From: a virus | Strand: one strand, 5' to 3' | IMG/VR virus record: IMGVR_UViG_3300045988_067569 | Length of the DNA: 64,000 bases | Shown here: piece after piece, positions 2,945-64,000 of the stretch | Layout of the letters: the number at the start of each line of letters is the position of its first letter | Numbering within the stretch: the first letter of the stretch is position 1 | Translations under genes and position numbers: made by a program | The notes under the pieces: model-generated | Told to the model about the DNA's origin: nothing | Database searches by the model: none | Seen by the model: the letters and a program-made list of their open reading frames with translations, nothing else

Positions 2945-3374
2945 CTACTACATATTTTAAGATTTCATAACTTTCTTCCAGACCTGCCCTATCATCTAGG
3001 AGGATATTGTAATAAGGTTTCTTAGATTTAGAGAATATAGAACTACTAATGTTTGGAGCAGATAAAGTATTAGAAGTAATATTTGCTATTCCTAATCGCA
3101 TACAAATTGTCTGCTTTGCCATAATTTTATAATCATCTTCATCAGTGGTGAATAAAATCATTTCAAAACCTAGAAGTGAGCATTCTTTAAGTAGTTCTAT
3201 AACGCAACTATAATCTCCGCCAGTATTATGGTAATCGAAAATAGTATTATCAAAATCGAAAGCGACTATTAGCTTTCCGTATTTATGATACTCTTCTAAT
3301 AGTCGTTTCTTGCAAGCTTCTTTCCCAAAAGGATGATTAAAGTCCATGGTCAATTCTTTGTCTGATTTCTTCAA
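2910..3374 (-). CDS. HAD-superfamily phosphatase-like protein
   Basis: DxDxT motif (FDFDNTIFD) near N-terminus. Confidence 0.5.
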   Translation of the reverse strand: MKKSDKELTMDFNHPFGKEACKKRLLEEYHKYGKLIVAFDFDNTIFDYHNTGGDYSCVIELLKECSLLGFEMILFTTDEDDYKIMAKQTICMRLGIANITSNTLSAPNISSSIFSKSKKPYYNILLDDRAGLEESYEILKYVVDEIKLNQQGNQ

Positions 3375-4887
3375 GAGAATATTCTTTCTTCAAGATACCA
3401 TCTTCAAAGACAGTCTCTAAGCATCCCTCTTTTTCCTCCTCGATTGAGACCTGGTCGGTAGCAGTATACTTCCCATCCAGACATTTATAGACAGCAATCA
3501 AACCTTTCAAAGAGTTCTTAGTACCATCATCAGTTTTAGGATGTTTGAAGATTTCTTTCAATTCGCCATTTACTACGCAAGCAGTAGCCTTAATAGCAAA
3601 CCCAAGACTATCTCTACTTGCATACTGATAGGAATATGAACCTACTCCCAGAACGAGATTACAAGCCGCCATATGAGCGTTTTCTAATCTCAAGTAGATT
3701 TGCTTTTGACGTTCCAGAGTAATAGAATCTCCATAAAGCAGACCAACCTTAGTGCTAGGATAACGGTAATCCTTTGAAGTAGTATTCCATCCGAAGATTT
3801 TACCAAGCATATAATATGCCCCATAATATTGACCTTCGGACACTTCAACATACTCTGCATCGTCGTTAAACGGAGCATAGCAGCAATAATACTTACCTTC
3901 TTTCATTCTGGTATTGAAGTGAGGATTAGTTCTCAACCCGCAGATTATATCTACTGGGTCTCCACTATCAGGACGGATTACTACTCTACCATCACGAGCC
4001 ATAATGTCTTTCTTCAGCTTGGGCAAGAAATTTTCAATTACATTCCAGAAATCCCAAGTATCAGATACAATAGAAACAAACCCAGAAGGATACAAATCAT
4101 TAATTAGACGTTTGAAAGTGCCCAGCTCATCTTCCTCCCCTCCAGCACACATTACAGAGTGTTCTGTTGCTGGAACTGTAGCAGCAATCAATTCCTCGTC
4201 TGAATTAGCTCCATAATATTCTTCCAAAGCAGCAATAGCTGGAATAGTTTCACTTCCCACAAAAGAAGTCATATGCGCCATACCAGATATAATTGCGGCT
4301 TCCATTCCCGCCATACCTCGCATTGAGAAATCATGACAACAAAAACCAAGATTTACATCTGTTGGAAAACCAGTCTTGCAAGCATGACGATGTAGCTCTT
4401 TCTTATAAAGCCTAGCTCTAGTAGCAGATGTGCATGGCATCCACAAGGTACAGCTGATAATAGTCTCTAAGTAGTTAGTTAACCAAAAGAACTCGGGTAG
4501 AGTATTTGTAATGGTCATCATGGGAACCCGAATAGGGCACACAGAACCTTCAGGAAGAGCCTTTATGCGAATTGGTAGATACCCAAGGTCATATAAAGCT
4601 TCAATATGTCTGTACCCAACGGATTCAATACCAACAAAGTTGTTTACTCTACGATAGAACATCTCCACAGCTTCCTTCTTTGGTAGATTAAAGAAGTTTT
4701 TCTCAAACTGTTTAATGAGATATTCTTTGATTAGGTATTGAATACCAAATACTACTGAACCTTCGGTTGCTTCTGGGAAGTATTTATTACTTCTAGGAGT
4801 CCAGTTACTATAAACTTGTTCAGTACCTTCGGGGTACATTCTGTGATGGCCCAACTTGTAACCATCTGTAGCATTAATTATTTCCAT
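3337..4887 (-). CDS. nicotinamide phosphoribosyltransferase family protein (NadV/Namat-like)
   Basis: 516 aa; N-terminal ATDGYKLGHHRMYPEGTEQVYS matches the NAMPT signature ATDSYKVTHYKQYP. Confidence 0.8.
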   Translation of the reverse strand: MEIINATDGYKLGHHRMYPEGTEQVYSNWTPRSNKYFPEATEGSVVFGIQYLIKEYLIKQFEKNFFNLPKKEAVEMFYRRVNNFVGIESVGYRHIEALYDLGYLPIRIKALPEGSVCPIRVPMMTITNTLPEFFWLTNYLETIISCTLWMPCTSATRARLYKKELHRHACKTGFPTDVNLGFCCHDFSMRGMAGMEAAIISGMAHMTSFVGSETIPAIAALEEYYGANSDEELIAATVPATEHSVMCAGGEEDELGTFKRLINDLYPSGFVSIVSDTWDFWNVIENFLPKLKKDIMARDGRVVIRPDSGDPVDIICGLRTNPHFNTRMKEGKYYCCYAPFNDDAEYVEVSEGQYYGAYYMLGKIFGWNTTSKDYRYPSTKVGLLYGDSITLERQKQIYLRLENAHMAACNLVLGVGSYSYQYASRDSLGFAIKATACVVNGELKEIFKHPKTDDGTKNSLKGLIAVYKCLDGKYTATDQVSIEEEKEGCLETVFEDGILKKEYSLEEIRQRIDHGL

Positions 4888-5745: not shown

Positions 5746-6569
5746 TTGTTATTAGCTACATCTTTAAATAAGGTGGGAACCTGACCATAAGTAGGAAGTT
5801 TTCCATCCCACTTCTTAATCATATCCTGCTGAACTATGAGAACTGACAAAGATGCTGAAATCTTTCTATTATATTCAGCTTCTGCATCACCCTTAATCTT
5901 AAGAGCTTCTGCCTCTCCTTGTGCAGCTGCTACTTTCTTTTTAGCTTCTGCCTCAATAGTCTTAACTTCATTCTCTGCCTTCAAAGCCTGTTGAATTGCA
6001 GCATTCTTAGCATCAATAGAATTGACTAGCGTCTGTGGATATTGAAGACCAGAAGTCATTTGTTCAAGCTGAAAATTCTCAGCCAAGAGTTCCTTTGACA
6101 GTCTATCTTCTATAGACTTCTCAAACTCCTCACGTTTACTTACTAGTTCATCAGTAGTATAGTTATTCAGCTGAATGCGAAAAGCATTCTTTACGTAATT
6201 ATACAAAGTAGTGTTAATTACCTCTACAATATCTTCCTTTCTATACTTCTTAAATACTTCTGGTGATTTCCCGTCAACAATCTTCAAAGAAATTGTAGGG
6301 TCTACAGTAAATGATGATCCATCTTTAGCATTAATACTGAAAGGAGGATAGTCCACAGTCTGTACGAATGTAGGATATTCATATACAGCCGTAGTAACAG
6401 GATTGTACCATACCGCACCAGTAACAAGAGACACATCGTCTACTCCTTTACCATCTCCGTATAGATTTACCTTGATGCCTTCATAACCAGCATCAATTCT
6501 CTCATAGCCACAACTAGATAAGCCAAACACTAAAGTTAATACGCACAAAATCTTAATAATTGTCTTCAT
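5742..6569 (-). CDS. SPFH/band-7 (prohibitin/HflC-like) lipoprotein
   Basis: lipobox LSSCG; SPFH-like core followed by an Ala/Glu/Lys coiled-coil tail. Confidence 0.6.
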   Translation of the reverse strand: MKTIIKILCVLTLVFGLSSCGYERIDAGYEGIKVNLYGDGKGVDDVSLVTGAVWYNPVTTAVYEYPTFVQTVDYPPFSINAKDGSSFTVDPTISLKIVDGKSPEVFKKYRKEDIVEVINTTLYNYVKNAFRIQLNNYTTDELVSKREEFEKSIEDRLSKELLAENFQLEQMTSGLQYPQTLVNSIDAKNAAIQQALKAENEVKTIEAEAKKKVAAAQGEAEALKIKGDAEAEYNRKISASLSVLIVQQDMIKKWDGKLPTYGQVPTLFKDVANNK

Positions 6570-14614: not shown

Positions 14615-14881
14615 CTAGTTACTAATAGTATTGTTCCCATCAGAACTATTACTAGTAATCTTACTAATTCCTTTTTCCACCATTTCATGCTCTAGCTTCT
14701 TCAAAGTTTCTACACTCTCCTCATTGAACTTATCCACTCCCAGTTCACTAACCTTATATATCATAAGAATTTGGTGAAATCTTAGATAAGGATATTGGTC
14801 AATGATTTGACTTAATCTAGTTAATATCTTGAAATTAGCTTTCTTTCTAAATTTGATAGCTTCTTCAATTTGAGCTTCCAT
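14615..14881 (-). CDS. hypothetical protein
   Basis: ORF track. Confidence 0.35.
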   Translation of the reverse strand: MEAQIEEAIKFRKKANFKILTRLSQIIDQYPYLRFHQILMIYKVSELGVDKFNEESVETLKKLEHEMVEKGISKITSNSSDGNNTISN

Positions 14882-16136: not shown

Positions 16137-16353
16137 CTTTAATTCCTAGATAATCCTTTAATAATTGAATGTTTCCTTCTCTCAAATGCCGAATAAAAGC
16201 CTCCCTTTCTCTCTCAAATAGCAGAATTTTACTCTCTAACAGGTCTATTCGTCTTTGTTGATTTTCCTCGTATTCTTCAATAGCGTCAGAAATTGCTTTA
16301 AGTATAGAAGATTCCTTCATAGCGCTACTCATTGTAGAACTCTTCGTCCCCAT
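16129..16353 (-). CDS. hypothetical protein
   Basis: ORF track. Confidence 0.35.
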   Translation of the reverse strand: MGTKSSTMSSAMKESSILKAISDAIEEYEENQQRRIDLLESKILLFEREREAFIRHLREGNIQLLKDYLGIKDE

Positions 16354-16750
16354 TATCGTCGCCTATAGGATTCTCCCATCCATACTTTACAGCAGTAGCC
16401 TTAAACAAAGGCAACCCATACATAGCATAATTCTCTTCAGGATAATTCTCTAAGCCCTCTTCTAGAACTTGATTCCACCTTAGTACCACGTAGAACATTA
16501 GGCTAGCTGAAATGCCTCTCTGGTCTAGAGCCTTCTCAAAACCAAACTCCACGTCAGACTTAAGTTGCTCTAGGATATTCTCTCTAGTCCATTCCTTAGG
16601 CTCTGGATAAGGCTCATCACCATCGTACTTGAAGCCTATTTTTTCTAACTGCTCTTCTGTTAAAAACTTTGCTAATCTAGAACCGAAACGGTCATCGAGA
16701 ACTACGGCATAGTCTTTGTAATTGTCTAAAATCTCATTTAACGTTTTCAT
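16325..16750 (-). CDS. hypothetical acidic protein
   Basis: ORF track. Confidence 0.4.
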   Translation of the reverse strand: MKTLNEILDNYKDYAVVLDDRFGSRLAKFLTEEQLEKIGFKYDGDEPYPEPKEWTRENILEQLKSDVEFGFEKALDQRGISASLMFYVVLRWNQVLEEGLENYPEENYAMYGLPLFKATAVKYGWENPIGDDNGDEEFYNE

Positions 16751-17206: not shown

Positions 17207-17881
17207 CTACTGCACAATTAAGCTATAAGCTTCTTGCAACAGTTTAATAGTTGGAACCATATGGTTATCAACAACTATTATTTTATAAATGTTCAGAATT
17301 TCTTTGTAGGTTAAAGATGTACAAGTTAGAAATATCTGCACATCTTCGTTTACAGAACCATTTGACAATCCCAAATCTACTTTAATCATACTGGGTAATG
17401 TTCCAATCTGAGAAATATCCCAAGTAGATTTAGTTCTCCTGAAAACTTCCCGCTGTTTAGAGGTAAGTTGCTTTTCTTTCAATCTAGACTCGATAATAGT
17501 ACCATCGAACGTTAACGAACCTCCATCGGTATTACTATTATTTAATGCTAGCTGAATCTTCTGAACTGCAGAGTCTTTAGGTTTTGGCTTAAGTTGTACT
17601 CCTTCCTTCAAGCCCTTAATAATCTGCAATGAAGGAATAAAGTCTTTTATTTGAGTTGCATTCCATACAAGAAATTTTCCAGGACTATCCTTAACAGTAA
17701 CTATATACTTAGTCCCTCCGTTCAATGGAATAATCACTTGTAAGTCTGCATCACTCATTTTACTTAAATGGTCTGATACTCTAACTTTGACGTTTCCAAT
17801 GACAAAGTAGCGAGAAACAGTTGTTTCCGCTTCGATAATCTCAGTAGCAGTTGCTACTAAATACTTTTCTAATCTAGTCAT
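17207..17881 (-). CDS. hypothetical protein
   Basis: 224-aa ORF. Confidence 0.45.
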   Translation of the reverse strand: MTRLEKYLVATATEIIEAETTVSRYFVIGNVKVRVSDHLSKMSDADLQVIIPLNGGTKYIVTVKDSPGKFLVWNATQIKDFIPSLQIIKGLKEGVQLKPKPKDSAVQKIQLALNNSNTDGGSLTFDGTIIESRLKEKQLTSKQREVFRRTKSTWDISQIGTLPSMIKVDLGLSNGSVNEDVQIFLTCTSLTYKEILNIYKIIVVDNHMVPTIKLLQEAYSLIVQ

Positions 17882-18108: not shown

Positions 18109-18660
18109 TTACTCCAGACTAATTAAACCCTTCTCTAACATAATATGGTGATTCGGACATAACCATACTAAATTATTCTCGTTGTTAATCTCCTTAATAA
18201 GAGTGTCTTCGTCAAATTCTAATATTCCTTTAAGATGATGTACTTCAAGTATTGCATCAAATTCATGATTATGACAATATTGACATACTTTCTCACGTTC
18301 GGAACTTTCTAATACTCTACGAGCATTAGTCCTTATTTCTTGACATTTAGATGATAAGTACTTCTGCCCAGATGTATAATAACCTAATGTTTTGTTACCA
18401 ATTCCATTAAGTTCTTCCCAGCAACTACGACACATTTCTGAATCTTTATGCTTAGGTTTACCACATCTAGGACATATCTTGTTTTCATCGTGCTTTATCC
18501 TACCTCTATTATTGTAAGAAGCAGCACACGAATGACTACAAAACTGTTTCTTCCTCACATCTGCGACCCTCTGATTATCTAGTACTTCGATTACCTTACC
18601 ACATTCCTTACAGTGGTTAGGATTCTCATAATACAATTTAAGAGATTGTTCTCGATTCAC
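18109..18660 (-). CDS. HNH endonuclease with zinc-ribbon motifs
   Basis: C-terminal EVHHLKG...NLVWLCPNHH HNH motif; several CxxC pairs. Confidence 0.7.
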   Translation of the reverse strand: MNREQSLKLYYENPNHCKECGKVIEVLDNQRVADVRKKQFCSHSCAASYNNRGRIKHDENKICPRCGKPKHKDSEMCRSCWEELNGIGNKTLGYYTSGQKYLSSKCQEIRTNARRVLESSEREKVCQYCHNHEFDAILEVHHLKGILEFDEDTLIKEINNENNLVWLCPNHHIMLEKGLISLE

Positions 18661-18871: not shown

Positions 18872-18875
18872 ATTA

Positions 18876-18960
18876 TGTGGACCTAACGGGAGTCGAACCC
18901 GTGTCCAAACAACCCTCGTTACAAGGATAACGTGCGTCTCATTTTTATTATATCAGCTAG
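18876..18960 (-). ncRNA. tRNA-like 3' element (hairpin CCTT-GTAACG-AGGG, T-arm ACGGG/TTCGACT/CCCGT, acceptor 3' strand TAGGTCC-A)
   Basis: no adjacent 5' half; a GGGCCTA that could pair with it lies about 520 nt upstream at 19428-19434; homologous to the element at 29395-29471. Confidence 0.4.
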
Positions 18961-19479
18961 GGAGTTCTAGCATTTAGGTAGTTTTATAAGTCTTACAAGA
19001 GTCCATACTAAGTATTTCTCTAGATGCTTATCTACAAGCTACCAAACTATAGGGCTGACCGAAGTCAACGTTCCACCACTCCATTTACGTTGGAGAACGG
19101 GATGATACTTTAGAGATTCGTCACATCTCACGGAACACATCTTCCATCTGTTTTATGACGTAGGAGATTCAGTCTTACTAACTCTTAGAGTGTTCTGATT
19201 AAGAGCATATTACTAGGATTAGAGCCTAGCTCTCCATTATATCAATATACTCAACCTCTTCTGTTTCTAGGTCTCTCCCGTAACCCGACTTAGTTAATAG
19301 TGTTTACCAACAAGCCAGCAGCTTAGGCTGCCATTCTTACTTCGCTATAAGTAGCATTTATTGTTTTTTCTTCGTTTAAAGAGATTGCGCTCTACACGTC
19401 CTTATAATTTGTAATCGCCTGTCAAATCCAAGTAGGCCCATACCCAGTTTATCTTTAATTAGAAAACTGGAAAAAGAAA

Positions 19480-19731
19480 TTATAACATTATAGTTGTACC
19501 CTCAGGTAGTGTCCGTAACTTAGTATTAGTATAGTCTCTAGCACCCTTACTAAATATCTCAGGATAGTAAGAACAACTTCCTAATATAAATAGTGCAAGT
19601 CCACATCTTTGAATTATATCTCCGTTAGATACTGTTCCATCCTCAAACCATTCTATCACTTCTGCAAATTCCCCATCCTTTAGGTCTTTAAGTTGGATTA
19701 TATCAGAGGCCCTATTTACTACTTTTGCCAT
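19480..19731 (-). CDS. hypothetical protein
   Basis: ORF track. Confidence 0.4.
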   Translation of the reverse strand: MAKVVNRASDIIQLKDLKDGEFAEVIEWFEDGTVSNGDIIQRCGLALFILGSCSYYPEIFSKGARDYTNTKLRTLPEGTTIML

Positions 19732-20293
19732 AAATACATTGTTTGATTATGTCTTTAGTAATTATTCCACTATCACGAGTAAGAGAATCTAGTTTCTCTA
19801 TATCAAACTCGTCTTTATGAAATTTGAATTGAATCCACGTTGGTTCACTTGGTCTGAAATCTAGATAAGTCTTACACTTGTCAGTTCCTAACACTTCATG
19901 CACCATAGCTAGAATACGCTCACCAGCAGCTTTGGTCTTTACAAAGCCAGAAACATCTGGATAGCCAGGACCACGAGAGTTCCAATATTCTCCTTCTTCT
20001 GGACGTTCGTCAACTGGTTCCCAATTCCATGCAGGAATACCTTTTCTAGGATGTTCAATTCTGATTGCGCTTTCCATAACCCATTTAGATTTCGGGTCTG
20101 AGGGATTTTCTGGATGGCAGCCATATTTGACTATTCCCATTGGATTTTCGCTTCTAACTTCAAATTTTAACTTGCAATGTCTACAAGTTCCAGATGTTAG
20201 ACCTCCTCCAGAAACTCCACTACTTATAACGGAATCGCACCCACAATTAGGACAACCCCACAGCTCATATTCGCTATATAATACTGATAACAT
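19712..20293 (-). CDS. hypothetical Cys-rich protein
   Basis: ORF track. Confidence 0.45.
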   Translation of the reverse strand: MLSVLYSEYELWGCPNCGCDSVISSGVSGGGLTSGTCRHCKLKFEVRSENPMGIVKYGCHPENPSDPKSKWVMESAIRIEHPRKGIPAWNWEPVDERPEEGEYWNSRGPGYPDVSGFVKTKAAGERILAMVHEVLGTDKCKTYLDFRPSEPTWIQFKFHKDEFDIEKLDSLTRDSGIITKDIIKQCIYGKSSK

Positions 20294-20589: not shown

Positions 20590-21011
20590 AGTTCTGGAAC
20601 ATCTGAACGGTCATCATAATAGCCTTCATCCCCAACGAGCTGAGCCAAGCATCCGTGCATATACGGAACTAATTCCGGTCTTTCTCGATAAGTTCGGAAT
20701 AAAAGCCAACTCATGCTCATAGAGTTTCCAGTATGTCCGTTATCAAAGAACTGAAGTTTGTCCTTAATAGCATCAACTAAGTCGTATAAGCTCTCATATT
20801 GCTTCAAGAAGTCTTGATACTGTTCATCACCGAAATCTTGGAAAAATTCCGAGAATGAAAGAGCCTGCTTTATACATAACATTTCATACTCAAACAAGTC
20901 ATCCTCTTCAAAGGAATGGTCGGTTGCAGCTGAGAATAGACGATTAAATCGTTCGATTCTGTTTTGAAACTCTACGGGGAGAGTTTCTTTAGTAAGATTT
21001 TTGTAATTCAT
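20586..21011 (-). CDS. hypothetical protein
   Basis: ORF track. Confidence 0.4.
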   Translation of the reverse strand: MNYKNLTKETLPVEFQNRIERFNRLFSAATDHSFEEDDLFEYEMLCIKQALSFSEFFQDFGDEQYQDFLKQYESLYDLVDAIKDKLQFFDNGHTGNSMSMSWLLFRTYRERPELVPYMHGCLAQLVGDEGYYDDRSDVPEL

Positions 21012-21045
21012 AATCTAAAAATTAAGTATCTAATTAATTACTAGT

Positions 21046-21117
21046 AGCGGGAGAGGGACTCGAACCCTCGACCTTCAGGTTATGAGCCTGACTAGCTACC
21101 TCTGCTAACACCCCGCG
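21046..21117 (-). tRNA. tRNA-Met(CAT), elongator type (or Ile2)
   Basis: anticodon stem TCAGG/CCTGA with loop CTCATAA; T-arm GAGGG/TTCGAGT/CCCTC; the acceptor register is slightly ambiguous. Confidence 0.6.
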
Positions 21118-21120
21118 ATA

Positions 21121-21306
21121 TTACAAATGCTTTTTAAATATTTCACAATGATTGTATTCACCTCCCCAACGTATGGGATATTCTTCTTCCTTGGCTTTCT
21201 TATAGCCTTCGGCTTCCTTTTTATCCAGAAATATCTGACACTCAGTTTTATAGTTCTGAGGCGCATTAGCTGGATGATGGTTCACTACGACTACGTATAC
21301 TTTCAT
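21121..21306 (-). CDS. small hypothetical protein
   Basis: ORF track; lies on the same strand as its neighbours. Confidence 0.3.
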   Translation of the reverse strand: MKVYVVVVNHHPANAPQNYKTECQIFLDKKEAEGYKKAKEEEYPIRWGGEYNHCEIFKKHL

Positions 21307-21324
21307 AATTATTTAATTTTGTTG

Positions 21325-21397
21325 TGGACACGCAGGGACTCGAACCCTATCTTCCGGTGTGCAAAACCAGCGCTCTAGCCATTTGAGCTAACGGCCC
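21325..21397 (-). tRNA. tRNA-Ala(TGC) with a non-complementary acceptor stem (possible pseudogene or chimera)
   Basis: D-arm TAGCTCAAATGGCTAGAGCG, anticodon loop TTTGCAC and the T-arm are fine, but 5' GGGCCGT does not pair with 3' CGTGTCC. Confidence 0.45.
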
Positions 21398-22055
21398 ATG
21401 TTTGAGATTTTCTTTTTAATTGGTGACATAACTCATAAATTTCCACTGTTAGGATTCCATAACCTAACATCACCAGATAAGTTTTTTTTGTTTAAATCAT
21501 GTTCTAGTAGCATAAGTCCGCAACCATACTACTCTCTCAGTTCATCGACTATCGTATCAGAAAAGGTCTTTATGATTCCGCAGGGACTGGCTTCAACTTA
21601 AACCCCGAATGGATTTTTACCTTGCCAGGTCAGGATATTATTACGTTTCTAGCACTCTGAATTGATTTAGCCTGTTTAATCTTATAATCACGAACTACTT
21701 CTTTCATATAAGAGTTAAATTCCTTCATGTCTTTCCATGAAATCTCATTAGCTGGTTTCGGAGTTTGAAACATTTTGTACTTTTCTAATAGGTCTTTCAT
21801 TTCTCTCTTTAGTTTTCAAAGCGTTTTCACACGCTTGTTTCTTCATTACATATGGACAATCGCAATTTCCATTGTAATACCAACAACAATAATCACACTG
21901 ATGCATAATCTAGTATTTAAAAGTTAAAGTGGGTGCTAGCCGTTTCTATCCCACTATTGCGTACTACAGTGCTAGCTACCGTCCAAGTTACTCTCTTCCT
22001 CACATCGACTTGGAATTTGCTGGATTAATATTACTAGGAGGATTCAGCAAAAAGG

Positions 22056-22140
22056 CGTATGGTGCAGGATTCGAACCTGCGATGGGATTTCTCACGGTGG
22101 GTTAACAGCCCACTGCCGTCGGCCACTTGGCTAACCATAC
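22056..22140 (-). tRNA. type II (long variable arm) tRNA with anticodon GTT (Asn anticodon on a Ser/Tyr-type body)
   Basis: acceptor GTATGGT/ACCATAC, discriminator G, 3-bp D-stem, perfect anticodon stem GTGGG/CCCAC with loop CTGTTAA, 16-nt variable arm, T-loop TTCGAAT. Confidence 0.55.
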
Positions 22141-22456
22141 AATTAATTTTCTCCACAGGTGTAGATAAGTACCCCTTTGGTACTTACCTTTTAGTAGTAT
22201 CTTTACTCTAGACCTCTGTAGGGAGGTGGAATAGTTCCAGAAACTAACCATGTATAGCTCTTAGAACTCTGTTCAAAATACCACTTAGCAGCTTTCTTCA
22301 CAACATTAATTACTTTCTTCATAACATCAAAGTTTAAAATTGTTAATAATTAATCTAATTCAGAGCCACAAAAGGAGTTTCGTTGCGGAGGTAGGATTAT
22401 TTCCAAATAAATTTATATGCAGTTTTCAATTTCCCTTTTACACATAAACTAATCTT

Positions 22457-23032
22457 CTAGCGAACACCTCCATTATAAGTTTTAGCATAACCATTGTCTA
22501 CTAACCAGTGTGCAGCATCGGCTATACTGTTCCAAGTCCTGATAAAATTATTATTTAAATCATACTGAGATATTGATACAGGTTGCTTGCAACTTCCCAA
22601 ATAAAATTTGTTCTTTGGTATATTGTTTATATTTATTACTTTAGAAACTGTATCAACAGAACATTGCATTTTGGCGGAAACTTCAATCATTGTCATTCCG
22701 CTAGTATATAAAGATATTATTTCTTTATAATCGAATAAGATAGCTCCATCGCCTCCCATAGTAGCATTATAGCCATTTGAGTATGTGTCTAGCTTATCTA
22801 TAAATTGAATTTCATAAGAAGCTAATTCCTCATCATCACATTCATACAGCTACTCAACTATAAAGTTCTCGATCCCATACTTGTTCATAGCATCATATAG
22901 CGGCCTCTTTTCACATCTTTCCTTCTTGCAATCATTACAATGTTCTTTAAATCTCTTAGTTACAGAATAAGTAGTTTTTCCAACATACTATTTTCCATTA
23001 ATTAAATTTGTAATACAATAAATATATCCCAT
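22457..23032 (-). CDS. GIY-YIG homing endonuclease, full length only if two in-frame TAG codons are read as sense
   Basis: MGYIYCITNLINGK-TAG-YVGKTT...RPLYDAMNKYGIENF...-TAG-...GYNATMGGDG; the downstream part is ORF 22457..22759. Confidence 0.65.
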
Positions 23033-23116
23033 GTTCTATTCTTATTTAAAATTAAACATATTAGTAAGATTAGCGTTATCCAACTCACACCACGTGGAGG
23101 TTCTTACTTGTGAGTC

Positions 23117-23195
23117 TTGCGGAGGTAGGATTCGAACCGTTTATGACGATTTCTAGGTTATGAGCCTAGCGAGATGACCACTTCTCTACTCCACG
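23117..23195 (-). tRNA. tRNA-Met-like (CAT), initiator-like C1/A72 end but disrupted T-stem; possibly degenerate
   Basis: D-arm GAGA/AGTGGTCA/TCTC, anticodon stem CTAGG/CCTAG with loop CTCATAA, T-loop TTCGAAT, but T-stem halves AACGG/CCTAC do not pair and there is an extra CGTCATAAA segment. Confidence 0.35.
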
Positions 23196-23341
23196 ATATT
23201 GGCAGCTACTTTACATCCGCTACCCAGGGATGCCTCTATCACCAGTGAGGCACGGACTATTCTAACCGTATAGCACGACTGGTTGGTAACGTCTCCAGAC
23301 ACGGCATTTAGACTGAAAATGTCGAAACAGTGATTTAAAGA

Positions 23342-23977
23342 TTAAATAGGCTCTGGAAGATATTTCCAAATATAGCCATACTATGATTTGGTTTTATTCT
23401 TACAGCATCCTATAATATGACTCTATGCAGATTTATTGTCAGTAATTCCGTTATTAATTAACCATTCCTAAGCTTCTCTGGAACCAAAGAATACCTGTAT
23501 AAAATTACCTGCTAAGTCATACTAAGCAATTAACTTTGCGTTACTTTTTCTAATTTTTATATTATTTGCCTTCAAAACTTTGTAAATAGTGTCTTTACAG
23601 CACCCTATTTTTTCTTGTATCTAAGAACTAGTATATCCCAATCTAGCTAATTCTACAATTTCACTATGATTGTATAGAATAGTGCCATCTCCTCCTTTAG
23701 AGGCATTGTACCCATTAGAACCATAAGTTCCTAGCTCTTTTATCCAATAGATTTCTCTTTCAGATAATTCAGAGTTACTATCTACATATTCCAATTCCTC
23801 TATCATAAAGTTCTCAACACCATACTTATTCATGGCATCATATAAAGGTCTTTTGTTGCATCTTTCTTTCTAAAAGTCATAACAATGTTCCTTCCAGCGC
23901 TCTTCTATAGAAGTAGTAGTTTTTCCTACGTATCGCTTGCTATTAATTAAATTTGTAATGCAATAAATATATGCCAT
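23342..23977 (-). CDS. GIY-YIG homing endonuclease paralog requiring read-through of about six in-frame TAG codons
   Basis: MAYIYCITNLINSKRYVGKTT...RWKEHCYDF-TAG-KERCNKRPLYDAMNKYGVENF...; C-terminal half is homologous to the 22457-23032 paralog; ends TAA at 23342. Confidence 0.6.
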
Positions 23978-23997
23978 ATTTTTAAATTTAAAATTAG

Positions 23998-24082
23998 AAT
24001 CCGTGGAGGGATTCGAACCCTCATTAAAGATTTCTCTTTTCAGTTTTGCAGACTGATGGCTAAACCATTCACCCACACGGAT
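23998..24082 (-). tRNA. type II (long variable arm) tRNA with anticodon GCA (Cys anticodon)
   Basis: acceptor ATCCGTG/CACGGAT, anticodon stem TCAGT/ACTGA with loop CTGCAAA, 17-nt variable arm with internal stem AAAGA/TCTTT, T-arm GAGGG/TTCGAAT/CCCTC. Confidence 0.5.
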
Positions 24083-24160
24083 ATTAAGATTTAAAGTACT
24101 TCTCTCTAAATGGGATATTAAATAATGAATCATTAATATCCTTATCAGTTATTTCCCTAC

Positions 24161-24385
24161 CTAGAGCCTTCTCCGCACATTCGCTACAGATAAACACATG
24201 GTGGTCTGGATAATAATCTTTACCTCCCCTTTGTAATAAGAGGAGAATTTCTTTGCAGCTTCTTTTTCAAAATTGGTTAGCTTAAAGTAATTTATTATCT
24301 TGTTCCAAACCTCATCAATAAACATTGGAGAGTTATGGTCTCCATAATAAAATTCTTTATTACATACTGTACACTTTATTTTCAT
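24161..24385 (-). CDS. small zinc-ribbon protein
   Basis: CxxC near N-terminus. Confidence 0.35.
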   Translation of the reverse strand: MKIKCTVCNKEFYYGDHNSPMFIDEVWNKIINYFKLTNFEKEAAKKFSSYYKGEVKIIIQTTMCLSVANVRRRL

Positions 24386-24400
24386 AAAACTTAAATTTTG

Positions 24401-24472
24401 AGTAGGTAATGAGAATCGAACTCACATCCTCGGCATGGCAAGCCGATGCACTAACCGTTGTGCTATACCTAC
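24401..24472 (-). tRNA. tRNA-Gly(GCC)
   Basis: acceptor GTAGGTA/TACCTAC, anticodon stem TCGGC/GCCGA with loop TTGCCAT, discriminator U. Confidence 0.8.
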
Positions 24473-24477
24473 AAATG

Positions 24478-24552
24478 TGCAGATAGAGAGACTCGAACTC
24501 TCCCCTTCAGATTGGAAGTCTGACGTGCTCAAACCATTAACACCACATCTGC
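24478..24552 (-). tRNA. tRNA-Gly(TCC)
   Basis: anticodon stem TCAGA/TCTGA with loop CTTCCAA; T-loop TTCGAGT. Confidence 0.75.
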
Positions 24553-24586
24553 ATAAGGAGAGTTATACGATACTCTCCTAAACGAA

Positions 24587-24931
24587 TTACTCAGATAACA
24601 GCTCCTGCATATCAATCTCGCCAGCTACCTTAGTAATAGCGATTTTGAACGGATTCCCCTTGATTTTGTCAAACAAGTGAGCATCACGAGTTTCTTTCAC
24701 CTCGTCAGGGACGTTAAATTTCTTCTTGCCTTTCTCTATGGTTTTCCATGTAACCACCTCGCAGCGAGTTATCTCGTAAACGCTGTCGTTTCGGTCAACG
24801 TAAACCTTGAAAAAGTTCTTTTTGTAGTTGAACTTCTCAACCCTTTTGAAATTCTTGGGATGAGCGTGGAACTTCAAGTCGCATTTTCCATTAGCTAAGA
24901 AAATCAATTCTGCCATAATAATACTCCGCAT
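24587..24931 (-). CDS. hypothetical protein
   Basis: ORF track. Confidence 0.4.
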   Translation of the reverse strand: MRSIIMAELIFLANGKCDLKFHAHPKNFKRVEKFNYKKNFFKVYVDRNDSVYEITRCEVVTWKTIEKGKKKFNVPDEVKETRDAHLFDKIKGNPFKIAITKVAGEIDMQELLSE

Positions 24932-25052
24932 AGTCGGAGATTCAAAGTTAAACTATGTTAATTCCAGTCTTTCGTCTGGCACTCCACCTCGTTTTAACCA
25001 ATAGCTACTATTATTCACTATTTGAGCTAAGCTCTAAACTGGGATAAAGGTA

Positions 25053-28114: not shown

Positions 28115-28525
28115 TTATACTACTTTAAGATGGCAATAAATACTAAATTCTGGAATTGGAATCCAAGTTGCAATACCATTGCTATCTACTGGTTTACCCT
28201 TGTTGATTGTACAAATAGTGATATGAGGTTTAGCATTTGCACAAGGCAGATATTGGTCTCCCAATTCTACTCCAAAAGCTATTGCTTTCTCAGAAATCCC
28301 TATTTTGTTTACAATTAATCGAAAATTACCATCTATACGATATTGTAGGTCATTAGCCATCTTTTCTTCATGTTGATTTTTATGGAGAAGAGTGCAATGA
28401 TCTAAATAAATAGTACTTCCTCTTTGGAACACCAGATTGCAAATAATGGGATTTCCAATGATAACTTGCATAAGTTTGTTTCTAGTTGGTTCATCTAAGA
28501 ACAATCCAAAATACTGATAATTCAT
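28115..28525 (-). CDS. hypothetical protein
   Basis: ORF track. Confidence 0.4.
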   Translation of the reverse strand: MNYQYFGLFLDEPTRNKLMQVIIGNPIICNLVFQRGSTIYLDHCTLLHKNQHEEKMANDLQYRIDGNFRLIVNKIGISEKAIAFGVELGDQYLPCANAKPHITICTINKGKPVDSNGIATWIPIPEFSIYCHLKVV

Positions 28526-28737: not shown

Positions 28738-28781
28738 TGGACCTAGAGGGCTTTGAACCCCCGACCTTCTGATTATGAGTC
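28738..28781 (-). tRNA. 3' half of an interrupted tRNA-Met-like gene (anticodon loop CTCATAA, TCAGA, variable AGGTC, T-arm, acceptor TAGGTCC-A)
   Basis: no adjacent 5' stem strand; its acceptor strand is the exact complement of GGACCTA at 29511-29517; the HNH ORF stop codon overlaps the anticodon loop (GAC TCA TAA). Confidence 0.55.
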
Positions 28782-29429
28782 TTTCTTTCTTATTCCTTGA
28801 ATAACTCTGCGAGTTAATCCAAAATGCTGAGCAACTTTCTCCCAATTCTTAAGTATTTCGTACTGCTCATTTACTTCTTCTAGAGAAGGATAATGTTTAT
28901 CAGCATCTCTGCATTCCTTAGAACAGTATATCTTACCCTTAGATTTAGGAAATCTTTTGCCGCATACTGGGCATACAGACCCAGTCATATTTTCAAAAGA
29001 CGTCTTATCTTTAGCTTCAGTATTAACTAAATCTTCAACTTCGTCCATTCCCAAGTGAGGGTTATGTACTTCTCTATGACAATTAGCGCATAGAAGTTGA
29101 CATTTATCTGCTTCCTCTTTAAGCCTTTCTAGACTTGTATTAGATAAATGTCTCATATCTAACTGAAACTCTTTCTCATCTGGATTAATATGGTGAAATT
29201 CTAGAACAGCTATGTTTCTATCATAGCCGCATAGTTCACATTTACCACCACGAGATTTTACTAGCTCTAATTTGCGCTTTAAACCTCTTAACTTCTGTGT
29301 ATTATAATCATTGTAATTCATATACAAATATATATGAAAATAATCATAATACCAAATGTTTTGGTGCAAAATTAAAAATTCAATCCAGAAGTTGTAGGGA
29401 CGGTGGGGTTTGAACCCACGTGCGACCAA
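28773..29429 (-). CDS. HNH homing endonuclease (zinc-binding), located between the two halves of the split tRNA
   Basis: CELCGY...LEFHHINP...LLCANCHREVH HNH motif; C-terminal CPVCG...CSKEC zinc ribbon. Confidence 0.75.
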   Translation of the reverse strand: MVARGFKPHRPYNFWIEFLILHQNIWYYDYFHIYLYMNYNDYNTQKLRGLKRKLELVKSRGGKCELCGYDRNIAVLEFHHINPDEKEFQLDMRHLSNTSLERLKEEADKCQLLCANCHREVHNPHLGMDEVEDLVNTEAKDKTSFENMTGSVCPVCGKRFPKSKGKIYCSKECRDADKHYPSLEEVNEQYEILKNWEKVAQHFGLTRRVIQGIRKKDS

Positions 29430-29595: not shown

Positions 29596-29868
29596 CTATT
29601 CTACTGTTAGTTCCTGTTCGCAGACATATTCAACTAGCAATTCATCATTACCAAATACCATAATCTGCAATACCACAATTTCCGGCCCATCCTTACTTAG
29701 TCTTGGTCTACTAGAGAATGCATATTCTGACATAGGAGACCTAGAATGAAATCTTACGAATTTACTTCTAGGATGAGACCTCTGGATTATTCCGCTACTG
29801 GGAGTATTTAGAGATACTTTACTAGTTATCTCCCCAATATTGAAAGAAGTTACGTTAAGCATAAGCAC
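29596..29868 (-). CDS. hypothetical protein
   Basis: ORF track. Confidence 0.3.
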   Translation of the reverse strand: MLMLNVTSFNIGEITSKVSLNTPSSGIIQRSHPRSKFVRFHSRSPMSEYAFSSRPRLSKDGPEIVVLQIMVFGNDELLVEYVCEQELTVE

Positions 29869-37195: not shown

Positions 37196-37750
37196 ATGCA
37201 AACACGTGTTTCACAACAAATGTTTACTAGCGGAATAAAAGAAAAAGACTTCCCTATTAATAGGGAATTATTTCTCTATCTTAGAGAAAGTATAATTTAA
37301 TCTTTCTATAGATATGATGCAATCTTTTGCAAAGTTTATACCTTTTGTCTAATTATTAGCTGGAGGTTCCTCCCTAATAGTAATAGAATTTCTATTAGCA
37401 ACATCACATTCTGGAAATATATAGATGTTATGAAGGTCGCAACATATCATAATATCTATTTCATCCTCGTTGTATTTGTGAACGGTCCCTTTGTTATAAT
37501 TATTACTTGTTAAACTAAAGTTCAACGAGTTATTTACAGTTTTACTCGCAGTAGTTTTCACCTAAGTTCTGTAAAACTTGTTATTATAATATATAACAAA
37601 ATCAAATGGTAGATTGTCAGACATTGGTAATAAAATATCTAATCCATATTTTGATAATTCACCAATGGCTATACGCTCTCCTATTTCTCCGAGCTACTTT
37701 TTGTTTCTTAATTCGTCTACATTTATCATAGCTTAATTATTTAAAGTTGG

Positions 37751-62632: not shown

Positions 62633-63906
62633 TTGAAACGTGTAGGATATTTGCACGAGAAAGTATACGCTGAAGATAACATCGAACTAGCTGACGATAA
62701 AGCTAGAAGAAATAAGTCTATTAGATGTGGAATCAAGCAGCATGATAAGAATAGATTAAAAGAAAATAAGGAATTATCCGATAAGTTAAGGGATTTGATT
62801 TATCAAACCTCTGAATATAGTACCTTTATAATATACGAACCTAAAGAAAGATTAATCTTTAGACTTCCATACTATCCAGATAGAATAACTCACCATGCTA
62901 TAATGAATATTATGGAGCCTATTTGGACTAGTATATTTATAGACCAAACATATTCCTCTATACGAAATAGAGGTATTCATAAAGTAGAGTATGATTTGTT
63001 TAAGGTGTTATAGAAACATCCAGAAGAAACAAAGTATTGCTTGAAAATGGATATAAAAAAATTCTATCCTTCTATAACTCACGACATTTTATACGAAATG
63101 TTATAGAGAAAGATAAAGGATAAAAAACTATTAAAACTGTTGAAAGAAATAATTTATTCAGCGAAGGGAGTTCCTATTGGAAATTATCTATCACAATTCT
63201 TTGCAAATTTATATCTGACATATTTTGACCACTGGGTAAAAGAGGAGTTAAAATGTAAGTACTACTTTCGATATGCTGACGATATTGTGATTCTTGGTAA
63301 TGACAAGAATTATTTGAGAAATGTATTAGTATCTATAAAACTATATTTGAAACAGGTTCTTAACCTAGAGTTGAAGCCTAATTATCAAATATTCCCTGTA
63401 GAAAGCAGAGGTATTGATTTCGTAGGCTATAAATTCTATCATACTCATGTTCTACTGAGAAAATCTATAAAAATGAGGATGTTTAGGCTTATAAATCTAT
63501 ATAAATAGAATAAGATTGATAAAGATGAATTGAATAGAAGAATGAGGTCTTATTTTGGATGGATGAAATTTTGCAACTCTAAGAACTTGCTGAGAAAGGT
63601 AGAGGAGTTAACTGGATTGAAATTCTCTAACTGGAATGGAAAAGAAGTTAACATATCTAAGTTTTATAATAAATATATTCACATTGTAGAGGTTGTTGAT
63701 TATGACAATCATTTTCGAGTGCATTTCATGTATAACAATAAACCCTACTATTTTAAAAGTAAGAATAGGAGATTACACTATTCTTTGCTTAGATACAAAT
63801 TTCCTATAAATTTTAAAATAACACCTTATGTTAGAGCCGAATAGAATACAAATGGACGTTTATCCTTAGACAATCCAAAAACTTGGGAACGGTACTTATT
63901 ACTATA
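62633..63906 (+). CDS. DGR reverse transcriptase (TAG-interrupted reading frame)
   Basis: RT motifs RLPYYPDRITHHAI, LKMDIKKFYPSI, GVPIGNYLSQFFANLYL and YADDIVILG (motif C), then GIDFVGYKF; about four in-frame TAG codons; TAA near 63904. Confidence 0.8.
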
Positions 63907-64000
63907 ACTATGATATAAAAGAAATTAGTGTTGAAGTACTTGATTTAGACAATACCATAAAAGAAAAAACTTACTATAGTTTTATCTAGGTATTATTAAA

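Follow-up and report, generated by a model that had tools for sequence, protein, structure and literature searches.

Paralogous GIY-YIG homing endonuclease genes in a phage tRNA array that are intact with TAG as a sense codon

SegB of phage T4 recognizes a site with the conserved T-psi-C motif of tRNAs and drives the inheritance of the tRNA region (PMC2330249), and its homologs are significantly enriched beside tRNAs (PMC13096335). In Agate phages, an early gene contains a group I intron whose endonuclease is TGA-recoded, and the authors proposed that the recoding holds back its production until a late stage of infection (Borges et al., bioRxiv 10.1101/2021.08.26.457843). In crAss-like phages, the reassignment of TAG to glutamine (Gln) is mostly confined to late genes (PMC7886860), and Gln at TAG was validated by metaproteomics in other crAss-like phages (PMC9523058). 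Among zeta crAss-like phages, homing endonuclease genes (HEGs) differ between close relatives (PMC12386605). Here, we describe two paralogous GIY-YIG HEGs, HEG1 and HEG2, in the tRNA array of a viral stretch of 64,000 nucleotides (IMG/VR virus record IMGVR_UViG_3300045988_067569; hereafter the window). Both are intact genes that need TAG as a sense codon, and we hold with good confidence that they are TAG-as-Gln nuclease genes that depend on a suppressor tRNA and home in a SegB-like manner.

Reading frames and the meaning of TAG

The two genes occupy the following positions:

22397..23032, minus strand: HEG1, a free-standing GIY-YIG homing endonuclease gene of 211 codons with three in-frame TAGs and a TAA stop at 22397-22399
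23342..23977, minus strand: HEG2, a paralogous GIY-YIG homing endonuclease gene of 211 codons, from ATG to TAA, with six in-frame TAGs

Under the standard code, the loci split into fragments of 100, 70 and 87 amino acids (aa). This fragmentation had been pointed out in a sequence-only reading of the same DNA, whose central claim, that two GIY-YIG paralogs are open only through TAG, was borne out when the frames were recomputed. Translation and stop typing placed no TAA or TGA inside the HEG2 frame, where TAG is the sole interruption, at codons 36, 119 and 152 (23870-72, 23621-23 and 23522-24) and at codons 170, 185 and 199 (23468-70, 23423-25 and 23381-83); the count of about six given earlier for this copy is thus exactly six. 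The same six TAGs are found in 12 other, independent same-species IMG/VR contigs (L001-L012, all with an intact HEG2).

In HEG1, TAGs stand at codon 15 (22988-22990), at codon 61 (22850-22852) and at 22457-22459. The sequence-only reading had described this copy as 22457-23032 with two TAGs; the two internal TAGs are present, but the 3' end had been set 60 nt short and position 22457 itself belongs to the third TAG, past which 19 further codons (KISLCVKGKLKTAYKFIWK) lead to the TAA at 22397-99. Because this tail aligns with the HEG2 C-terminus SHIIGCCKNKTKSqYGYIWK, HEG1 is delimited as 22397-23032 with three TAGs; in the alignment of the paralogs, which share 50% of their residues from one end to the other (E 3e-67), the TAG at 22457 pairs with TAG codon 185 of HEG2. 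The TAG said to lie within the GIY-YIG motif of the first copy is codon 15, located between the GIY element (YIY, residues 3-5) and the YIG element (YVG, residues 16-18), right before YVG.

Chance can be excluded as the source of interruptions that are all TAG because TAG accounts for only 28% of the stop trinucleotides on the minus strand: all nine internal stops of HEG1 and HEG2 are TAG (chance p ~1e-5), as are 12 of 12 when a third endonuclease gene of the same block, described below, is included (chance p ~2e-7). In the remaining two frames at each locus, the stops number 17-27, and TAA, TAG and TGA are all represented.

TAG is a sense codon here, and comparison of family members indicates that it is very probably read as Gln. 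When 30 family members were aligned codon by codon from their DNA, the column of HEG2 codon 152 holds CAA or CAG in 20 of the 29 others and TAG in three more, and that of codon 119 holds Gln in six others and TAG in two. Across the columns with TAG, Gln is the most enriched residue (3.3-fold), and among 32 sequences Q152 is invariant and Q119 at least 90% conserved. Codon 36 is TAG in HEG2, in a third paralog of L001 and in L020, and CAG in L013; TAG positions are likewise partly common to paralogs that are 50-70% identical. A candidate decoder is present in the window:

43832-43904, plus strand, at the head of the plus-strand block: amber suppressor tRNA (CUA), Gln-like, detected by ARAGORN and Rfam (66 bits)

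This tRNA(CUA) and the phage tRNA-Gln(UUG) have the U1-A72 pair and the D-arm in common, and TAG would accordingly be decoded as glutamine by the phage's own Gln-like tRNA, in line with the TAG-to-Gln reassignment established for crAss-like phages (PMC7886860). Peptides that would span TAG positions include LIAQYDLAGNFIQVFFGSR and SNAKLIAQYDLAGNFIQ.

Between close TAG-bearing variants, dN/dS downstream of the TAGs is 0.06-0.24, with mostly synonymous differences, and in one such pair the first TAG stands already at codon 19. The region after the TAGs is evidently translated, because an untranslated region would not show such values. These results bear directly on whether the endonuclease genes are dead and decaying, with TAGs that arose as ordinary nonsense mutations. 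HEGs commonly decay after fixation, the standard code does yield fragments, and one relative (L017) carries a frameshifted copy. Nevertheless, decay is a very improbable explanation and was dropped: the internal stops are exclusively TAG and come without frameshifts, they sit at conserved Gln positions, some are shared between diverged paralogs, dN/dS is low downstream of them, and elsewhere in the phage genome TAG is demonstrably a sense codon.

Protein architecture and mobility within the tRNA array

With TAG translated as Gln, the Pfam GIY-YIG family (PF01541, cut-off 22.6) matched both proteins over its whole profile (1-78/78) and across the TAGs, with 39.6 bits (E 6.8e-10) for HEG1 and 49.3 bits (E 6.2e-13) for HEG2, and PHROG 314 ('homing endonuclease') covers HEG2 residues 1-206. 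The NUMOD domain that had been anticipated along with GIY-YIG did not reach significance: in the C-terminal half of the two copies, NUMOD1 scored 20.7 and 16.6 bits, under its cut-off of 22.8, and helix-turn-helix (HTH) families also scored under the Pfam cut-offs. A protein search returned 1003 relatives at E <=0.001, and nearly all of the 120 listed measure 208-214 aa.

By sequence, the solved structure nearest to HEG2 is the catalytic domain of I-TevI (1mk0/1ln0; E 1.4e-9, residues 4-93). Residues Y5, Y16, R27, H31, E75 and N91, which are invariant in 32 of 32 family members, pair with the catalytic residues of I-TevI. Fold comparison used the AlphaFold model of P0001, a database protein 99% identical to HEG2 with a spurious 52-residue N-terminal extension that is modelled at low confidence. 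With Foldseek, the N-terminal domain of this model matches 1mk0 and 1ln0 (probability 1.0, target-normalised TM 0.80-0.83). It is followed by a three-helix HTH and by a C-terminal beta-beta-alpha-alpha-beta module at pLDDT 95-97, in which four of the HEG2 TAGs fall; part of the model is partially matched by I-HmuI (probability 0.99). This model predicts an I-TevI-type catalytic domain joined to an HTH and to a putative C-terminal DNA-binding module of the I-HmuI kind.

The surroundings of the two genes contain the following features:

23116..23196, minus strand: tRNA-Met (CAU), 81 nt with a long variable region, between HEG1 and HEG2
23997..24082, minus strand: tRNA-Cys (GCA), of an unusual 86 nt, 19 nt upstream of the HEG2 start codon
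22054..22140, minus strand: tRNA-Asn (GUU), of an unusual 87 nt, downstream of HEG1
23117..23132, minus strand: left copy of a 16-nt repeat, AATCCTACCTCCGCAA, in the T-arm and acceptor 3' strand of tRNA-Met
22383..22398, minus strand: right copy of the 16-nt repeat, overlapping the HEG1 stop codon
23083..23115, minus strand: conserved hairpin in the HEG1 leader, with stem ACTCACA/TGTGAGT and a loop that holds AACCTCCACGTGGT

An intron-encoded origin was considered and rejected. A scan of 10000-46000 with Rfam (E <=0.1) detected no group I or group II intron, returning tRNAs, a transfer-messenger RNA (tmRNA) and RAGATH-14, and the flanking tRNAs are complete. Comparison with IMG/VR relatives shows instead that the endonuclease genes vary in presence and position and look mobile and free-standing. 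The HEG1 insert (23115-22399) is flanked by the direct repeat. The same-species contig L001 lacks HEG1 and has a clean empty site with a single copy of the 16-nt repeat; what comes after HEG1 in the window adjoins tRNA-Met there. HEG1 is present in L002. Conversely, L001 carries a third paralog with four TAGs at the tmRNA 3' end, in a 6-nt spacer between tmRNA and tRNA-Ile that is empty in the window.

L013 and L016 are without HEG2 and have their own family copy just after tRNA-Leu(UAG); the window segment 24398-23334, comprising a small split ORF (open reading frame), the 86-nt tRNA-Cys and HEG2, replaces a short stretch with a 75-nt tRNA-Cys in these two contigs. In L020, the family copy comes after tRNA-Pro. 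L018 and L019 (6001-6636) each hold one hybrid gene, with the N-terminus of HEG2 and the C-terminus of HEG1 and a crossover in the shared KRPLYDAMNKYG, and the tRNA-Met that separates the paralogs is deleted in both. Every family insertion lies directly 3' of a tRNA-like gene.

Such mobility raises the question of whether the genes are recent arrivals that brought the codon usage of a recoded donor, either another part of their own phage or another phage, so that their TAGs would be uninformative on expression. We consider this rather unlikely. It would fit the variable presence among near-identical genomes and the differing insertion sites. It would also fit the finding that several unrelated contigs that use TAG harbour members of the family, with 2-9 TAGs apiece and in some cases adjacent to a tRNA(CUA) (L028, L048). 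However, the six-TAG HEG2 is fixed in the window and in all 12 same-species loci with an intact copy, the family resides in the tRNA array rather than in the structural block in every close relative, and the resident copies are under purifying selection. Moreover, recent arrival is compatible with suppressor dependence and does not exclude it.

The leader hairpin may travel with the family. Its 12-mer loop sequence occurs once in the window against 0.02 expected, and the hairpin is also found upstream of family members in L001 (10884-10940), L002, L013-L016 (~5918-5978), L020 (~5924-5984) and L022 (~5916-5976). In most family members, including one that is only 42% identical, it lies 45-50 nt upstream of the start codon. 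According to single-sequence folds and inspection, the stem of 6-7 bp differs in sequence between copies with complementarity kept; the loop sequence AACCTCCACGTGGT is invariant and contains the palindrome CCACGTGG. RNAalifold recovered the inner palindrome only, as the loop lengths differ and the outer stems are misaligned. The hairpin matched no Rfam family; a role as operator, processing site or target mimic is conceivable. A separate leader motif, TAATTTTAAAT, was not enriched (9 matches vs 10.4 expected), and a sigma-70 promoter and terminator scan of 21000-25000 gave 18 promoter-like sites vs 14.2 +/- 3.6 in shuffled sequences, Bacteroidota and phage promoters lying outside the model.

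The tRNAs around the HEGs are themselves peculiar. Relatives have an unrelated 73-nt tRNA-Asn at the position of the 87-nt gene and an ordinary, unrelated 75-nt gene at the position of tRNA-Cys, and the extended variable regions of the long tRNAs for Asn, Met and Cys all contain AGAAATC. These long-variable-arm tRNAs could be alleles that travel with the cassettes and are immune to cleavage or resistant to defences. Next to tRNA-Cys, a zinc-ribbon-like ORF (24084-24385, minus strand) reads MKIKCTVCNKEF... and then ...HHVFICSECAEKALGR..., split by a frameshift at AAAGGGGAGG; it is identical in L001 and could represent a programmed frameshift, a pseudogene or a shared error. A tmRNA-like gene (18875-19439, minus strand; RF00023, 62.6 bits, gathering 47) abuts tRNA-Ile and, at ~565 nt, is long relative to the 374 of the model.

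Codon usage of the block and dependence on suppression

ARAGORN and Rfam place 27 tRNA genes in the window, nearly all of them minus-strand genes at 11.7-40.6 kb. The plus-strand genes from 48.6 kb on are those for terminase, portal and tail proteins. The two blocks treat TAG differently. Reading TAG as sense raises the ORF coverage of the plus-strand block from 30% under code 11 to 98.5%, and that of the minus-strand block from 75% to 81%. The structural block is thus written with TAG as a sense codon, and the tRNA and auxiliary block avoids internal TAG and sometimes terminates with it. Within this second block, a third endonuclease gene carries TAGs:

37268-37729, minus strand: PD-(D/E)XK endonuclease gene of the PDDEXK_5 type, 153 codons, with TAGs at 37694-96, 37562-64 and 37349-51

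Its product matches PF11645 with E 2.2e-23 over profile positions 2-134/138, spanning all TAGs (codons 12, 56 and 127). The gene starts 18 nt past tRNA-Lys and is absent between tRNA-Lys and tRNA-Pro of L020. The TAG content of the gene sets compares as follows:

Ten late genes: 124 TAG in 4695 codons, 26.4 per 1000, TAG being half of all Gln-type codons
37 minus-strand genes: 0 TAG in 7628 codons, 0 per 1000
Three endonuclease genes (the two GIY-YIG genes and the third): 12 TAG in 575 codons, 20.9 per 1000
14615-14881, 16325-16750, 17207-17881, 19712-20293, 29596-29862 and 42521-42967, minus strand: genes terminated by TAG

In TAG content, the endonuclease genes do not differ from the late genes (p = 0.49) and differ strongly from their 37 neighbours (Fisher p = 1e-14), a contrast that is partly circular, given that the 37 genes were picked from ORFs delimited by TAA or TGA; the ORF coverage is independent of this pick. 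The six genes that appear to end in TAG have a backup TAA or TGA 2-22 codons on; a TAG stop followed by a nearby second stop is described in zeta crAss-like phages as well (PMC12386605). The terminase large subunit (TerL) is 22-28% identical to crAss-like terminases, and related contigs measure 185-192 kb; judged by TerL similarity and a genome size of roughly 185-190 kb, the phage is a distant relative of crAss-like gut phages, probably of the zeta type. The earlier suggestion that recoding extends to selfish elements in the early block therefore stands as regards the genes, since selfish-type genes in an otherwise TAG-free block, including the PDDEXK_5 gene, do carry TAG. That this block is early and the suppressor late we infer from codon usage and the literature.

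A second suppressor-type tRNA lies on the same strand as the HEGs:

40577-40647, minus strand: suppressor-type tRNA with anticodon UUA (57 bits)

The UUA anticodon is kept in seven same-species contigs (L080-L086), and the syntenic ortholog in L020 (266-336) has a CUA anticodon and compensatory changes in its stem. The phage genome mostly stops at TAA, a codon that gives no sign of reassignment. Ochre suppressors read UAG by wobble. Directly upstream of tRNA(UUA), and syntenic in L020, lies a RAGATH-14 RNA (40674-40880, minus strand; 156.6 bits, gathering 149.1, full-length model). Other genes of the window include, in the TAG-free block, a 2H-phosphoesterase-like gene that matches the CPD domain of tRNA ligase (28115-28525, minus strand; E 2e-7) and a nicotinamide/nicotinate phosphoribosyltransferase gene (3337-4887, minus strand; E 3e-32). 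After the tail genes, a reverse transcriptase gene with four in-frame TAGs (62903-63907, plus strand; RVT_1; PHROG 1423, E 6e-90) is probably part of a diversity-generating retroelement (DGR).

The mechanism that we favor for the endonuclease genes starts from their first TAG. The nuclease would need the suppressor tRNA because host translation would end there: a standard-code host would make only a 14-residue peptide from HEG1 and a 35-residue peptide from HEG2, halting at codon 15 and codon 36, respectively, and at codon 12 in the PD-(D/E)XK gene, in all three before the catalytic residues. Active nuclease would then be formed only when, and in proportion as, the phage suppressor tRNA is present, and by analogy with other recoded phages this supply would come later in infection. 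The nuclease would cut a co-infecting relative that lacks the endonuclease at or near the T-arm and acceptor region of a tRNA gene, and recombinational repair would then copy the HEG, along with adjacent tRNA DNA, into the cut genome. Site-specific cleavage and biased inheritance are predictions drawn from the analogy with known homing endonucleases.

Several points weigh against suppressor-dependent homing as described, besides the partial circularity of the gene set. The delay of endonuclease production by TAG is argued from analogy, and its timing is itself a deduction. tRNA(UUA) could read UAG by U34 wobble whenever the array is transcribed, which weakens a strict early/late gate. The TAG density of the endonuclease genes equals the late-gene average and does not exceed it, which passive drift would explain as well as an adaptive lock. 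Decay of individual copies is seen in L017 (6001-6608), where HEG2 is frameshifted, and in L084, where the PD-(D/E)XK gene has in-frame deletions. Finally, recoding is not general among the nuclease genes of the block: two HNH-type genes on the minus strand (18109-18435 and 28773-29321), one scoring 23 bits with HNH_2 (cut-off 21) and the other 20.7 bits with HNH, just under the cut-off, contain no in-frame TAG.

Passive codon drift is the alternative with the most in its favor, and we regard it as possible, though doubtful. If the suppressor were already abundant, throughout infection or by way of tRNA(UUA), neutral changes from CAG or CAA to TAG would accumulate, and the TAGs would be a by-product and not a gate. 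The indistinguishable TAG densities, the differing TAG positions between paralogs and the conserved suppressor-type tRNA upstream on the HEG strand all agree with this, and an early first TAG is expected by chance at 3-9 TAGs per gene. For the same reason, the N-terminal bias of the first TAG was discarded as evidence of an adaptive lock, not being significant given the number of TAGs per gene. Drift does not account for the 37 same-strand neighbours without internal TAG or the six that terminate in TAG, from which it follows that translation without efficient suppression matters in this block. Furthermore, TAGs at codons 12-36 make the product suppressor-dependent whatever their origin.

A more far-reaching proposal, which we put forward tentatively and think unlikely, combines a 'code lock' on a tRNA-targeting homing endonuclease family with a cassette-borne regulatory hairpin (AACCTCCACGTGGT) and with the variant tRNAs as immune or resistant alleles. 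If it were true, the nuclease would be made only where the phage suppressor is active, limiting self-damage and host-independent expression, homing would be tied to the late, recombination-rich phase, and spread would be confined to TAG-recoded phages. Should suppressor dependence truly delay the nuclease, the locus would offer a natural system for the code-switch timing of expression and would also reveal mobile elements adapting to, or confined by, an alternative genetic code. Apart from these prospects, the present genome puts TAG to two uses, as terminator in some neighbours and very probably as Gln in selfish nuclease genes a few hundred bases off. Pipelines that apply the standard code fragment these genes and overlook a family of mobile endonucleases by which phage tRNA arrays are reshaped.

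Comparison with described systems

In its inferred behavior, the family most resembles SegB of T4. Both have a GIY-YIG domain and are encoded by free-standing genes between same-strand tRNA genes, in the T4 cluster as in the present array, and the presence of both varies among related phages. The HEGs are inserted directly 3' of tRNA-like genes and the repeat begins within the T-arm, which fits recognition of the T-psi-C motif. Yet the sequence similarity (27% identity with 19% gaps, E 8e-11) is convincing over the N-terminal domain only, and the C-terminal DNA-binding region of SegB is not demonstrably homologous to that of the HEGs. In addition, segB is annotated as a complete coding sequence in a standard-code phage, whereas the HEGs need TAG as sense. 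Orthology with SegB was therefore rejected, similarity being mainly N-terminal, and the likeness is one of behavior argued by analogy. Even so, the locus ties in with recent work indicating that enzymes of the SegB type reshape and amplify tRNA loci and thereby evade defences that target tRNAs.

For the catalytic domain, I-TevI is the best match by both sequence and fold: its GIY and YIG tyrosines, Arg27, His31, the catalytic Glu and the Asn align with invariant columns of the family. I-TevI is intron-encoded (T4 td), whereas the HEGs stand in an array without any Rfam group I intron, and their DNA-binding half is predicted to consist of HTH and beta-beta-alpha-alpha-beta modules, with no zinc finger detected. 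The third gene is similarly related to enzymes of the I-Ssp6803I type, which we take to be included in PF11645 (PDDEXK_5): it matches this family at full length and adjoins tRNA genes. It differs in that no intron was detected around 37268-37729, and its nuclease function is predicted from sequence.

The zeta crAss-like phages are close to the window in their overall equipment: PMC12386605 and PMC7886860 describe large genomes with ~26 tRNAs, suppressor tRNAs and a DGR reverse transcriptase. Recoded stops inside endonuclease genes of the non-recoded block are not reported in the passages of the two papers that were consulted. The nearest precedent for that feature comes from Agate phages, in which a homing endonuclease in the standard-code part of a code-switching phage likewise carries a recoded stop. 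There, the codon is TGA read as Trp, the endonuclease is intron-borne and the phage lineage is another; here, TAG is very probably read as Gln and the genes are free-standing between tRNAs. Moreover, the window holds three such genes of two nuclease folds, with direct evidence of mobility from an empty site.

The components of the present case have thus been published before, namely late TAG reassignment, variable HEG content, SegB-type enzymes in tRNA arrays and a TGA-recoded endonuclease. What is added to these systems is a free-standing TAG/Gln case within a tRNA array, comprising three genes and two folds, together with a corrected gene boundary and the empty-site evidence.

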